Shown here: one piece after another, positions 18,699 through 59,101 of the stretch
How positions within the stretch are numbered: the first letter of the stretch is position 1
Layout of the letters: the number at the start of each line of letters is the position of its first letter
NCBI GenBank assembly: GCA_951406725.2
Contig: OX597840.1
Location: 38,440,001 to 38,504,000 of the forward strand
Direction of reading: 5' to 3'
Origin: Octopus vulgaris
Taxonomy: Eukaryota
DNA length: 64,000 nucleotides
Translations under genes and position numbers: made by a program
Notes under the pieces: generated by a model
Databases searched by the model: none
Seen by the model: only the letters and a program-made list of their open reading frames with translations
What the model was told of the DNA's origin: nothing

Positions 18699-18737
18699 CC
18701 ATCTGATGAATCCTCACTGGATTTGAAACGGTAATTG
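18699..18737 (+). ncRNA. Degenerate minimal type I hammerhead motif
   Basis: ccat-CTGATGA-atcc tcact ggat-tt-GAAA-cgg-TA-attg; stem I is weak. Confidence 0.4.
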
Positions 18738-21147
18738 TAAATTTTGGAAACAAATATTTTATTTAACGATATGGAAGCAGCTGTAAATAGATTTGTCATT
18801 TCTTTGTATAGAAATAATAAAATTGGATTCATCATTTAATGTTTGAATTATGTAATTATTGAATTTTCTTATTTTGTTTCTGTTTCTAATTACGATTAAT
18901 ATTTTGATAAACTGATTGTTTATTCCTTGCCAATCAATAAGGAGCGGAAGTTCATAACGATGTTATTTATATAGGTAGAGAGCCAGTAATTTTTGGGATA
19001 TTTAATATCCCATAGGTGGTTATTTAACAATTTAACACCTAACGTAATTGCCAATATATATATATATATATATATATATATATATATATATATATATATA
19101 AATATACATATATGTATAAGTATTTCTATGTATATATATATATATATATATATATATATATAACTTAGAAAACTCAGATACGTTTCGACCAAAGATTGGG
19201 CCAGGCCATGTCTAACTTAATAGCACCACCTGATAGGATTATTCGAATCCTGTTTAAGTCGAGTTTTGTTCAAGTAGTGAGTTCTTGTATATATGTACAT
19301 ATTTATATGTATATATATGTATGCACACACACACACACACAGACATATATATGTATTTATAGGTATATATATTTACCAGAATCTCCCTGATTGTGTACAT
19401 ATAAATCATAGAGCATGCCTCTATATTTGTCACGAAATTTTTCCTAGCATAGCTGTGTATTGTTCGCCTGGCAAGAAATTAATTCCTTACAATATTTTTT
19501 CCTCCTCTACATAGCTTTATATAATTAATGAATTAATAGAAAATGTACCTATTATATATGAAGCATAAGCGCACCTAGTTGGTATATACATAGATAGATA
19601 TATACATATATATATATATATATATATATATATATATATATATTGATATGTATAATCATATATAAGTATATATCATGTATATATATATTTCCATATCATG
19701 TATATACATAAATGCAAATATTTCTTTGTATATAGTTCTTTTATGGATATCATAAACGAATATCGGAAAAGTATCCGCTTAATAGGTACGTAATTACTAT
19801 GCTTCAGTAAGTACTTGAAAGAAGGAATCAACATGTAATATGCAATAGTATAGTGCTAAAATAATGCATTAACAAGATTTGAACATTATTATATGCGATA
19901 CCATAAAAGTAGAAAGCAGGCGACTATCAGTACTTCAATAATGCGTATGTATTTTTTTTTTCTTAAATACGGATTATTTAAGATTTGAAACGAACGTGTA
20001 TTTCTAATTAATTTCAAAGGATTTTCTGCGAGTGAAAATAAACCCACAAATAACAAGATTTACTTAATATGTTTATGTATCTAAACCAATAAATGTTTCC
20101 GTTACGCTATATCTGATATTCACTAGCGCACACAATGCGTAAATTTATGTATATACATCTGCCAATTCATACGTATATACACTCACAAACAGTACCATAA
20201 ACACACACAGACACATACACAGAAATATGCATTCATGTGTGTGCTTGTATACCTCTACACATGTATATATATGTGCACCTGTATATATATGTACATGAGC
20301 ATATATATATATATATATATATATATATATATATATATGTGTGTGTGTGTATATATATATATATATATATATATATATATATATATATATATATATATAT
20401 ATGTACATATATATGTATATATGTAATATATATATATATATATATATATATAGACATATATATATATATATATATATATATATATATATATATATATATA
20501 TATGTATGTATAAACTCACTAACACGTCATTTACACATTCATATTTAAATGCAGAATATATAAAGCTGTGTATATATGTATGTCTATGAAGAATTACACA
20601 TATATTTACACATATACATCTATATAATTACACAATAGTATGTGTCTATATAAATATATATGTATATATATATATTTATATGTGTATGTTTGGTTGTGTA
20701 TGTAAATATATATATATATATATATATATACATATATTCATCATCGAATATTTGTGTGTGTGTGCGTGCGTGCGTGTGTGTGTCTCTGTTGCGTGTGTAT
20801 GTCTCATTACATCCTGTGTGTGTGCTTGAGCAGGAAAATATATTTTGCGGCAATTTAGAGAGAGTATTGAAGTTCGCATTTCATCAATTTAGTCTGTATT
20901 CTAAATCAAACAAAAAAAGAAAGAGAAGAAATATTGCCATCAAAATCTTTAATTGACAAAATATTCTTGCATTTTCCTAAGTTCAAAATAATTGAGTAAG
21001 CTAAATTTGTGCCCCTAAAAGTATTAAATATTTTATAATTCATCATTGTTAAGTGATGTCTAATAATAATAACAATAATAATAATAATAATAATAATAAT
21101 AATAATAATAATAATAATAATGATAATAATAATAATAATGATAATAA

Positions 21148-21680
21148 GACACATACCAGAAAAGGTTAATATAGACACACACCAGAAAGGGTCGCAGAAA
21201 GCGAGAAAGCAAACATACTCTGGGATATGCCAATATACACAGATAGAGAAATTAAGGCCAACAGGCCAGATATAGTTGTCAGAGATCATGAAGAAAAAAA
21301 AATGCTTTCTAATTGATGTATCAATACCGGCAGATGACAACGTGTCTCTAAAAGAAATGGAGAAACTCTCAAAATACAAAGACCTGGAAATAGAGGTAAC
21401 TAGAATGTGGAACCTGAAAACAGAAACAATTCCTATCATAGTAGGTGCATTAGGCATGATAAAAAAATATTCAGACAAATACATAACAAAAACACCAGGA
21501 CTTACAAACACATATAACATACACAATATTGCACTACTAGGCACTGCACACATCCTACGCAGAACACTGTCCATACAATAACCATCAGAGCATCACAAAA
21601 CATCACAGCACATACCCAAGGCACACAGAGCTTCGCTCGGTAGTGAAGTGAAAGCACGTTATAAAAATAAAACTACTGAA
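21148..21680 (+). mobile_element. Dong/R4-clade non-LTR retrotransposon 3' end (REL endonuclease), 5'-truncated
   Basis: Peptide ILWDMPIYTDREIKANRPDIVVRD, then a frameshift, then KKCFLIDVSIPADDNVSLKEMEKLSKYKDLEIEVTRMW (PD..D..K REL motif). Flanked on both sides by (TAA)n, the known Dong target. Confidence 0.9.
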
Positions 21681-21859
21681 TAATAATGATAATAACAACA
21701 ACAACAACCACAACAATAAGGATAATAATACAAGCACAACATTTCAGTGTGAAATACAAATTCTCCTGTTATACCAATCTAATGTAGTTCAGACCACAAA
21801 AACTGTTAATATCAATTGCTGAATTTTCCAAGGTGGCTCACTTTCACATTTGAGTTTTT

Positions 21860-22245
21860 GAAATGCCCAAATATCCCTTACAACTGTGCATAACAGAACA
21901 GGGTATGGATATGAAATAGGCGACAAGAAAAGTATTCCTCTATTTCATATGTATGATTGAAGGCTCTATGACTAAGACGATAAGGAGCTTGAAGGTCTGC
22001 CACGAACTGTGAAAGCTGTCAGGGATGATGTTGGGATGGAATTTGGTCTCGGCGTAAATGTGCCAAGACCACTTTCCAAGAAGGGAAACAGAAGACCTCA
22101 CATTCGGTGGATTTGAGTGTTGACACAATCATAAAAGAACTCGAGCAGGAAGAAACTTGCAAACAGCTCGGAATAAATGGGCGATCATGGAATTCAACCT
22201 GCAAGTATGAAAGACACAATCAAGAAGGAATGCTACAAGAGAGTT
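21860..22245 (+). mobile_element. Decayed R4-clade RT fragment
   Basis: LFHMYD*RLY..DDKELEGLPRTVKAVRDDVGMEFGL..KCAK resembles HLLYMDDLKLY...DIGMEFGLDKCAK. Confidence 0.75.
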
Positions 22246-22246
22246 C

Positions 22247-56734: not shown

Positions 56735-57303
56735 CATGGTCGCGTAGTAAGAAACTTGCTTCACATACGCATGGTTCCGGATTCAATCCAACAACGTGGT
56801 AAATGGGCAAGTCCTTTCTACTATAACCTCGGGCCGACCAATGACGTGCGGGTAGATTTGCTAGACGGAATCTAAAAGGCGGTAAGCTGGCAGAGAAGGC
56901 GTTGAGCTGGCAGAATCGTTAGCACGCCTGGCGAAATGCGTAGCTGTATTTCGGTTGCCGCTACGTTCTGAGTTCAAATTCCGTCGAGGTCGACTTTGCC
57001 TTTCATAATTTCAGGGTCGATTACATAAGTACCAGTTACGCACTGGGGTAGACATAATCGACTTAATCTGTTTGTCTGTCCTCCCTGTGTTTAGACCCTC
57101 GTGAGTAATAAAGAAATATGTATTTCGTCTGCTGCAACGTTCTGAGTTAAAATTCCGCCGAGATCGACTTTGCCTTTCATCCTTTCGGGGTCGATTAAAT
57201 AAGTACCAGGTACGCACTGGAGTCGATATAATCGACTTAATCCCTTTGTCTGTCCCTGTTTCCCCCTCTATGTTTAGCCCCTTGTGGGCAATAAAGAAAA
57301 TAG
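56735..57303 (+). mobile_element. Degraded CORE-SINE head followed by a Meta-like SINE dimer
   Basis: CORE head 56735-56875; duplicated head start at 56878/56898; bodies joined at gaaatatgtatttcg (57113-57127). Confidence 0.85.
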
Positions 57304-58296
57304 GAATCTAAAAGACGCCTATCGCAGATGTTTACACATATACATGTATATGCATGTGTATGTGTTTCTTTATATTCGACGGTTTCTTTCCATTTACAAG
57401 GTTTTAGTAATCCCGGTGGTACTCTTGGAGATATTTGCCCGAAATCATCCCCATATGCGTTCTATTTTATATCAAAATTAGAAAAGTTAGTTCGATATCT
57501 AACTTACTGATGTTTTGACGGCAAAAATGACATGAAATCGTCTAAAACTCATAACAAAACAAAACCCCAAAAAGGTATCTGCGTGTATAGGGGGTGTCTG
57601 TCTCAGTTTTCCAATCACCCACTGACAAGTATCGGTATGTTTGCCTCCCCGTAAACTATCGGTTCTGCAAGAGGAATCGATAGCAGAAGTATGGGCTTTA
57701 AAAAAAATGTTTTGGTATCCATTCATTGGATTAACAATTCGTCCATGTTGTGCCCCATTATAGCCGCACTCAAATAAATGAAATGTAAAAGATGCATCAC
57801 ACATGTATAATAATTTGAAGGTTGTGGTATGATGTAAGGCTGTTGTGAAACTGTTTATTTTCTATAGTTTTATCAATGATTATGGCGTCCTAGCCATTAT
57901 CCCAATTCTTGATCCATATCCAACAACGTAAAAAAATAACCAGAGACAATCATCTTTTAATCTTACAACGCTATATATTGTTTTTTCTTATTTTTGTATA
58001 TTTTGTATATTTTCCTATTCTCCTTGGAAGTATGTTGTCTTAGTGTCACGCTGTTTCGGTCTAAAACATGCTTATGCTCACAAAAATATATGCTGCGTGC
58101 TCGTTAATTCAGGAGGTCCGTCAAAAGGGTACCAATTGCAGCCAGCGGCGTGGACTGGAAAACTTGGAATTGACTTGTTTTACTAAAAGATACGAGATGT
58201 GCACAGCTCAATAGAAAACACAGTTGTACCATCATGAGTGCAACAACTTTAATTAGTTACATTTGGAAGATATTTGTCCTCATCTTGTTTGTTGCC

Positions 58297-58342
58297 AACA
58301 CAACGTTTCGGCTGATATACCCTCCAGCCTTCATCAAGTGTC
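58297..58342 (-). ncRNA. Minimal type I hammerhead motif (U3 variant)
   Basis: Minus strand: gacac-TTGATGA-a-ggctg gagggtatat cagcc-GAAA-cg-TT-gtgtt; adjacent to a (TTG)/(TTA)n tract. Confidence 0.65.
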
Positions 58343-59053
58343 TTGGGGAAATTTCGAACCTGAGATTTCATTGCTAAGGAATTTTTCGATGTTGTTGTTG
58401 TTGCTGTTGTTATTATTATTATTGTTATTATTGTTATTATTATTATTATTATTATTATTATTATTATTATTATTATTATTATTATTATTATTATTATTAT
58501 TATTATTATTATTATTATTATTGCGTTTCTATAATATGATGAAGTCTGGCGATTATATCAGCCGGAATGTTCTGTTAGCAACAATCAAAATGAGGACAAA
58601 TAGACGTTAAATGTAAATAATGTACATAATTCTTCATCTCTTAAATATAGAACAAAACTTTAATTATTACCTAACACACCTCCAGCATTACATACACATA
58701 TGTATGTGTGTGTGTGTGCGTGTGTGTGCGTGTGTGTGTGGCTCACAACAATTGTCTATCGATGTAAGATTGTTACAAGCCTTGAGCAAACCAGAGACTG
58801 TGCTGATAGATATTTCAGACATTTGGTACACAATGAAAACTTCTGGAGCTTCCTTATTACAGATCAAATTTCTTAAACGTTCGCTCATATTGCTTCCGTT
58901 AGCAGATATTCCATTCAAATTTTGCTTGAAGAAGAATATTCAAGTCAAAACATCAAGATAGATCTCCGAAATCAGGTTTAAAATGCTCTGAGTAAAACTT
59001 CTAGGCGAATTGTTATTTCGGTTGTCTAGCCCTCTCGTTAACTCTCTCACATC

Positions 59054-59101
59054 GTCTCTGATGAAGGGACATCCTTAATATTCCAGAAACAGCTGTAAGG
59101 C
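59054..59101 (+). ncRNA. Type I hammerhead ribozyme motif
   Basis: gtct-CTGATGA-a-gggacat cctta atattcc-a-GAAA-cagctg-TA-aggc; palindrome ACAGCTGT, GUA triplet. Confidence 0.7.

Follow-up and report, generated by a model that had tools for sequence, protein, structure and literature searches.

A 64,000-nucleotide stretch of the Octopus vulgaris genome (assembly GCA_951406725.2, contig OX597840.1, positions 38,440,001–38,504,000 of the forward strand; hereafter the window, numbered from its first nucleotide) was examined for minimal hammerhead ribozymes. A preliminary description had placed these motifs at 11 sites between 18,699 and 59,101, as a dense, dimer-type set in several unrelated, non-autonomous families inserted beside microsatellites and mobilised by Penelope reverse transcriptase (RT). 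The window has a GC content of 34% and is rich in microsatellites, and its stop-free frames of at least 100 aa are mostly simple-repeat frames; the assembly as a whole comprises 2.8 Gb in 227 contigs. The 11 sites were found to fall into eight interspersed families, designated B24, E27, C32, G34, A56, F58, D59, and H18, so that several unrelated families are indeed present. Judged by sequence, the hammerheads are of the minimal type I kind carried by Penelope-like elements (PLEs).

The B24 insertion (24,171–24,775), which lies between two (TA)n runs, is a head-to-head pair of a monomer of about 354 nt lacking an open reading frame (ORF) and has a 3′ tail. It carries hammerheads with a U3·G8 core at 24,335–24,379 (minus strand; 8-nt palindrome, predicted cut after 24,341) and at 24,519–24,565 (plus strand; predicted cut after 24,558). 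C32 also forms a head-to-head pair (32,093–32,534), here of 5′-truncated pseudo-long terminal repeat (pLTR) copies of an intact PLE encoding 1312 aa, with hammerhead-like motifs at 32,218–32,257 (minus strand; A9C, non-palindromic loop, 3-bp stem I) and 32,367–32,410 (plus strand; A9C, non-palindromic loop, predicted cut after 32,405). Because both site pairs (24,334/24,519 and 32,216/32,367) are head-to-head inversions, one transcript would contain a motif and an antisense copy, and dimerisation in cis would not be possible. E27 (27,872–28,094, minus strand) abuts (TA)n and is the 5′-truncated 3′ end of a Hydra-type PLE; its hammerhead (27,905–27,990, minus strand) has a canonical core, a long stem II, and an 8-nt palindrome, with a predicted cut after 27,909.

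G34 is represented by one copy of an ORF-less monomer of about 350 nt (approximately 34,158–34,444, plus strand; hammerhead 34,238–34,277). The stems of this copy are mutated, but the site reported at 34,241 is sound at the family level, where the 5-bp stem I, stem II, and palindromic loop are kept, as judged by eye, in most of 14 other loci. The A56 hammerhead at 43,664–43,698 (minus strand; element about 43,590–43,775) belongs to a U4 subfamily and has lost its palindrome, and that at 56,161–56,195 (plus strand; element about 56,097–56,296) belongs to a C4 subfamily and has a 2-nt loop, with a predicted cut after 56,191. F58 is present as a headless, 5′-truncated copy (58,258–58,522, minus strand) with an internal (AAT)n run at 58,410–58,522 and a hammerhead at 58,297–58,342 (minus strand; predicted cut after 58,302), next to an inverted partner (58,537–58,653, plus strand) that is truncated at the hammerhead core and bears a tail of about 35 nt. 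The D59 hammerhead (59,054–59,101, plus strand; element about 59,030–59,170) has a canonical core and an 8-nt palindrome, with a predicted cut after 59,097, and D59 probably represents a Hydra-type PLE at its 3′ end. H18, an old, low-copy family with a long stem II, contributes a decayed hammerhead (18,698–18,790, plus strand; core 18,703–18,709). The original parse of this site at 18,699 was rejected as being in the wrong register: aligned relatives show, by eye, a stem II of about 65 nt, and the true second half lies 65 nt further on, at 18,774–18,785, with A15.1 lost.

A strict type I descriptor (YUGANGA, stem I of at least 4 bp, stem II of at least 3 bp, a palindromic loop III, and UH) matched the window five times, with cores at 24,373 (−), 24,526 (+), 27,986 (−), 58,337 (−), and 59,058 (+). 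No match was obtained in 40 global or 40 local dinucleotide shuffles, so the motifs stand above chance. A relaxed descriptor gave 10 matches in the window and means of 0.9–1.2 (maximum 5) in shuffles. Eight of the 10 are named sites; the two extras, at 38,089 and 51,287, are at chance level and were taken as chance. Allowing a 3-bp stem I recovered 32,216 (−), so that nine of the 11 named sites fit as copies; the other two, 34,241 and 18,699, fail as decayed copies of families in which the motif is present. A palindromic loop III was found at seven of the 11 sites (24,334, 24,519, 27,905, 34,241, 56,161, 58,297, and 59,054), but not at 32,216, 32,367, or 43,664, nor in the decayed copy at 18,699. 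The Rfam covariance models gave no support: no hammerhead was among the best 150 of 327 matches, nor in two further Rfam searches.

A genome sample of 600 kb, taken as 60 evenly spaced 10-kb stretches and searched with a medium descriptor, contained 24 motifs, compared with 0–3 in five shuffles. The loop is empty in three of these motifs, which are probably due to chance; when they are dropped, the genome-wide density is about 1 motif per 29 kb, or roughly 10^5 per genome. The window, with 6 motifs in 64 kb (1 per 11 kb), is two to three times richer than this average. The dense set is real, but with so many motifs elsewhere the window is only mildly rich and is not a special locus.

Genome-wide candidates for each family were counted at first look, as lower bounds: at least 2599 for F58, 2101 for G34, 1727 for E27, 1653 for A56, 1412 for D59, 1321 for B24, 671 for C32, and 18 for H18. 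Extrapolation from the 600-kb sample gave about 56,000 copies of A56 (12 matches), 47,000 pieces of F58 (10), 19,000 copies of C32 (4), and 14,000 of D59 (3); B24, E27, G34, and H18 had no match in this sample search. In each of the six families profiled the 3′ end is fixed, 85–205 nt beyond the core, and in all of these except A56 the 5′ end is ragged. An opposite-strand partner was found head-to-head in 37 of 124 family loci and tail-to-tail in none of the 124. Fixed 3′ ends, ragged 5′ ends, and head-to-head inversions are an insertion anatomy of the PLE type, for which a C-terminal GIY-YIG domain, pLTRs, an inverted 5′-truncated copy, and a one-ended tail of 30–40 bp have been described (PMC8557442).

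Insertion beside microsatellites held for part of the set. With adjacency defined as a simple repeat starting within 60 nt of the 3′ end of the element, repeats were present at 18 of 21 A56, 12 of 20 E27, 11 of 22 D59, and 10 of 22 C32 ends, all above the frequency at random positions (306 of 2000, 15%), and at 4 of 12 B24 ends. None of 18 F58 3′ ends touches a simple repeat. The AAT runs of F58 and C32 are internal to the elements, and the microsatellite beside 58,297 is thus part of F58 and not the insertion target it had been taken for.

That all of the families are non-autonomous was not borne out. Walking upstream from E27 reaches the 88-residue C terminus of an endonuclease, and relatives of E27 contain ORFs of up to 1091 aa with RWK, DKT, a CxCX5C linker, and endonuclease CxxC and CxH motifs. 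By this signature they are members of the Hydra clade, for which RWK, DKT, and CxCX5C are published motifs (PMC8557442). The hammerhead lies 395–1704 nt past the stop codon in 17 of 20 ORF-selected loci of this lineage. Covariation was assessed in 18 copies, comprising the window copy and 17 chosen by ORF and then by fuzzy motif match. Pairing was found in 95.4% of cells, with 20 double changes, and neither value was reached in 500 shuffles; slid controls had 23–53% of cells paired. Just four of 12 pairs covary, a number reached by 39 of 500 shuffles, and the double changes trace back to about two sublineages. At least three intact Hydra-type families (842–1091 aa; loci L398–L404) were also seen, each with its own long-stem-II hammerhead. 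For D59, a Hydra-type endonuclease was found about 1.3–1.5 kb upstream in two of 15 long loci.

C32 is located about 525 nt past GIY-YIG and is the pLTR of the intact 1312-aa element, occurring in each of the six parent loci and flanking the ORF on either side in four of them; in L408 the direct repeats lie 4588 bp apart. Direct repeats also flank the ORF in L340 and in P2, one of three further families described below. The parent is intact, its copies are near-identical, and the family is likely active. The N-terminal half of its protein (L408–L411) is long and of low complexity, and the RT fingers region contains an insertion. By sequence, E27, C32, and probably D59 are 5′-truncated ends of ORF-bearing PLEs. 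When the window families were compared by BLAST with P1, P2, P3, the Hydra families, and the C32 parent, true links were found for E27 and C32 only, and other apparent links were rejected as separate neighbouring insertions. Searches with tblastn of PLE proteins against B24, A56, and F58 loci revealed no ORF joined to an element, and a search with the endonuclease piece of L272, blurred by a low-complexity tail, returned broken copies only.

The Penelope relic proposed as local mobiliser does exist, as broken RT fragments of an old element at 46,812–47,460 (minus strand) that are unlinked to the hammerhead families. Its family contains RVT_1, a CX4CxxC linker, and GIY-YIG in copies 72–82% identical, and its 3′ region contains none of the motifs of the window families; the relic was therefore rejected as their source. 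Searches with the relic led to three intact families, P1, P2, and P3, and a CX2-5CxxC linker before a C-terminal GIY-YIG is common to the relic family, P1–P3, and the C32 parent. All of these are presumably of Neptune rather than Nematis type, a label based on resemblance. P2 has a palindromic-loop motif 503 nt past its stop codon and ends in (TA)n in eight of eight loci, and P3 has a U3-A8 motif. With three intact families found, PLE enzymes that could act in trans are present in the genome. In P1–P3 (L143:275–4182, L155:553–4148, and L254:544–3806) a first ORF, for which no Pfam match was obtained in the Neptune-type families, overlaps the RT-endonuclease ORF in the −1 frame. Within this overlap a U-rich slippery heptamer is present in P1 and P2, and the RT-endonuclease frame of P1 has no Met before residue 47; together these features suggest programmed frameshifting.

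From the motif, the family structure, the ORF links of E27 and C32 (and of D59 in two loci), the ragged 5′ ends, and the inversions, all directly observed, we conclude with confidence that the motifs are minimal type I hammerheads belonging to eight families, in each of which they lie 85–205 nt in from the fixed 3′ end; three of the families are PLE ends, four are ORF-less passengers, and one, H18, is an old family. Reverse transcription would start at the 3′ end of the RNA, at a GIY-YIG nick often made in (TA)n, and would stop early, leaving the 3′-proximal hammerhead most often, which would explain the density of the motifs. For the ORF-less B24, G34, A56, and F58, the copying machinery is likely to be Penelope RT and endonuclease. 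Any cleavage would require two copies to pair through the palindrome, either as tandem pLTRs in a full-length transcript or as two RNAs, and solitary and inverted copies like those of the window are likely inert. Several observations weigh against this account. Among about eight PLE families sampled, no autonomous partner was found for B24, G34, A56, F58, or H18. A56 (about 215 nt) has both ends fixed, usually with a simple repeat following, and is almost never inverted (1 pair in 60 matches), so that its tie to PLEs comes from motif type and target only. Finally, a very abundant control SINE (short interspersed nuclear element; L140:1665–1834) has a loose excess of head-to-head over tail-to-tail neighbours, none of them abutting (17 versus 6, and 21 versus 4 in another count).

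The cores of the hammerheads were tallied over all fetched copies, the focal copies being biased towards the query. The canonical core, C3 U4 G5 A6 N7 G8 A9, is borne by E27, D59, G34, and most F58 copies. Variants replace it in the other families: the main subfamily of A56 has C4 (12 of 13 copies, compared with U4 in all 6 of the U4 subfamily), B24 has U3·G8 (12 of 13), and C32 has C9 (34 of 42). Intact elements that have hardly diverged also carry such variants. P2 is near-invariant (mean p-distance 0.002), yet has a C4 core. The C32 parent, likewise near-invariant (0.0007), combines C9 with a loop that is not a palindrome and a stem I that contains a mismatch, and P1 (0.001) had no descriptor match in nine loci. 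The P1 pLTR (L143:1–250) contains what looks by eye like a degenerate hammerhead, in which U3-A8 occurs together with a changed second box and a palindrome of 6 nt. Very young intact elements thus carry motifs that are predicted to cut poorly. The designation of all sites as dimer-type was not supported, since C32 has no palindrome and the pairs of the window lie on opposite strands. For palindromes of 6–8 nt, duplex energies of −4.8 to −11.1 kcal/mol were calculated, and in eight of eight cases able to form it the monomeric fold was as stable as the open fold or less so, except for D59. The palindromes of 2-nt loops contribute only −1.7 kcal/mol.

The simplest reading, suggested by these sequences, is that cleavage helps little or is perhaps dispensable, because near-identical intact PLE families carry U4C, A9C, or a non-palindromic loop. 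The hammerhead fold may then be kept for a non-cleavage role, such as an RT-binding or dimerisation signal, or be a passenger that successful families can lose, an explanation that we rate as a serious possibility of a little less than even probability. It accommodates the state of P2, the C32 parent, and P1 as well as the family-level variants of A56, B24, and C32. Published work points the same way: U4C is reported to lower activity considerably in vitro (PMC3088659), PLE hammerheads have low activity (PMC4209133), of nine Xenopus dimers eight were inactive (10.64898/2026.07.22.740005), and Craig et al. propose that hammerheads may parasitise PLEs (PMC8557442). Selection on the catalytic fold is indicated instead by the covariation of stems and palindrome in the Hydra lineage and by the compensatory U3-A8 core of P3, and the U4C variant still supports viroid infectivity (PMC3088659).

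B24 and G34 raise a second alternative, that they are circular-RNA retrozymes replicating through rolling-circle intermediates. Both are ORF-less units of 349–356 nt in which the 3′ end of one unit continues into the start of the next, and with a type I hammerhead they agree in kind and size with retrozymes, for which units of 170–400 nt are given (PMC7229834). This origin is nevertheless doubtful. The 27 loci fetched contained partial tandems but no multimer arrays; head-to-head pairs, which are PLE anatomy, dominate; and the B24 core is U3·G8. Published non-LTR retrozymes share the ORF-less unit of about 350 nt, the type I hammerhead, and a proposed mobilisation by PLEs (PMC7229834; 10.64898/2026.07.22.740005), and retrozymes have been presented as non-autonomous PLE derivatives (10.64898/2026.07.22.740005). 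B24 and G34 differ in being dispersed as partial tandems or head-to-head pairs and not as arrays, and no pLTR homologue was found for them. The available text of the 2026 survey does not include molluscs.

The full F58 element is about 300 nt long, with a defined start, and consists of a 75-nt head, (AAT)n, a 55-nt spacer, the hammerhead, a short 3′ end, and an optional tail of about 35 nt; four sequencing-run contig sets cover its middle only. Compared with the six tRNA isotypes present in 30 fetched loci, the head best matched the genome's own tRNA-Arg (scores of 52–54.5; shuffles, mean 21 and maxima 36.5–43.5). Its A and B boxes were read by eye from the consensus. Among 30 loci selected by the head alone, the hammerhead followed downstream in 20, and in 20 an inverted piece lay on the upstream side. 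Abutting head-to-head pairs numbered 16 in 71 head matches, compared with 0 of 317, 4 of 290, and 0 of 63 for control SINEs. Fold-backs of at least 12 bp were present at 15 of 53 selected heads, compared with 4 of 97 control heads and 14 of 300 random positions, and the tail was seen by eye at exactly one end in all 11 pairs with both ends visible (one partial). These features make F58 a likely PLE-mobilised SINE. We lean towards the fuller proposal that F58 is a tRNA-Arg-derived RNA polymerase III (Pol III) SINE present in tens of thousands of copies, mobilised by PLEs and not by LINEs (long interspersed nuclear elements), and that active PLE families spread with crippled or non-dimerising hammerheads. 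The F58 RNA would be transcribed by Pol III from the tRNA-like head onwards, and a PLE enzyme would then insert it.

Some results sit poorly with this proposal. ARAGORN (17 loci) and the Rfam tRNA model miss the head, none of five unselected heads has a fold-back, and F58 ends in short tandem repeats. LINE-driven SINEs often end in this way, and F58 could instead be an ordinary LINE-mobilised tRNA SINE that captured a pLTR fragment, perhaps one of the octopus SINEs of 1994. F58 is also not (TA)n-targeted (0 of 18), no PLE partner was found for it, its 3′ end having no match among about eight PLE families in a comparison confined to PLEs, and three octopus tRNA-derived SINEs are in print according to the reference list of PMC4758252. 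LINE mobilisation is nonetheless unlikely given the abutting pairs, the fold-backs of selected heads, and the one-ended tail seen by eye, and membership in a named family would not itself settle the mobiliser. At L059:1447–1640 the head of an F58 element runs straight into the 3′ end of D59, possibly a template-switch chimera of two hammerhead families.

As for chance matches in AT-rich, repeat-rich DNA, loose descriptors do yield about one false match per 64 kb, two named sites fail as copies, and Rfam gave no match, but with no strict match in 80 shuffles and with family-wide conservation, a fixed position in the pLTR, and covariation, a chance origin is already refuted for the families and is scarcely credible overall.

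The main phenomenon, a high density of minimal hammerheads in repeats of PLEs, has been on record since 2014, when such motifs in pLTRs, as solitary copies, and as opposite-strand pairs were described (Cervera and de la Pena 2014, PMC4209133). The metazoan PLE hammerheads of that study share with those of the octopus the type I order, the short stem I, the palindromic loop III, the U3-A8 variant, the unpaired base after position 9 in most families, the many unrelated families per genome, and the occurrence mostly as solitary copies or opposite-strand pairs 100–700 bp apart. In what was available of its main text there is no cephalopod and no family-level U4C, U3·G8, or A9C, nor a young non-palindromic family such as that seen here. 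With the Hydra, Neptune, and Nematis clades (Craig et al. 2021, PMC8557442) the octopus elements share the C-terminal GIY-YIG, the pLTRs, the inverted 5′-truncated copy, (TA)n targeting, a hammerhead near the 3′ end, the Hydra motifs, and, as far as the F58 pairs read by eye go, the one-ended tail of 30–40 bp. The Neptune-type families here differ from the clades as described there in the overlapping ORF1 in the −1 frame, and Octopus is named in the available sections only for Naiads. A giant squid paper gives 235 hammerhead matches, with no analysis in the part available (PMC6962438).

The less ordinary parts are the tRNA-headed F58 and the variant cores in young intact elements; the preliminary description had noted neither the tRNA-like head nor the core variants. 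The schistosome SINE-like elements SM-alpha and Sj-alpha (PMC6765202) resemble F58 in having a Pol III-type promoter followed by a hammerhead. As described in the sections available, they are tandem repeats cleaved to monomers, whereas F58 is dispersed, its minimal motif has a 2-nt loop, its microsatellite lies inside the element, and its inversions and tail are of the PLE type. The octopus SINEs of Ohshima and Okada 1994 share tRNA-derived heads with F58, a likeness drawn from the title alone, and one octopus SINE, OR2, is listed as a CORE SINE (PMC4758252). Neither these families nor a tRNA SINE mobilised by PLEs was found described in print, in a search outside of which lay Repbase, Dfam, SINEBase, Lunse et al. 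2017, Ohshima and Okada 1994, and the 2014 and 2021 supplements, so that a prior description is possible. If the proposal is correct, a Penelope-riding tRNA SINE would extend the SINE-LINE partnership to a telomerase-related clade, and F58, at about 300 nt and with a defined start, would be the simplest substrate on which to study how PLEs recognise their templates and how 5′ inversion arises. Elements that are intact and near-identical coexist in this one genome with motifs of canonical, U4C, U3-A8, A9C, and non-palindromic type, and because they stand side by side, the purpose of PLE hammerheads is directly testable here, the variants forming a natural series for asking whether PLE ribozymes need to cleave.

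Further hammerhead families, with palindromes of up to 10 nt, were seen in the DNA flanking the fetched copies (L014, L027, L031, L069, L135, L158, L199, L223, L244, L339, L343, and L349). In L158 two direct hammerhead copies lie 490 bp apart, a candidate true tandem. A fragment at 20,906–21,592 of the window, beside a (TAA)n run, is tentatively likened to the C terminus of an R4/Dong-type element, and in copies of C32 and F58 (L358 and L375) the internal AAT runs are broken up by fragments of a similar kind. Finally, positions 8961–9312 hold a tandem pair of an abundant 184-nt SINE, which had 109 matches in the 600-kb sample.

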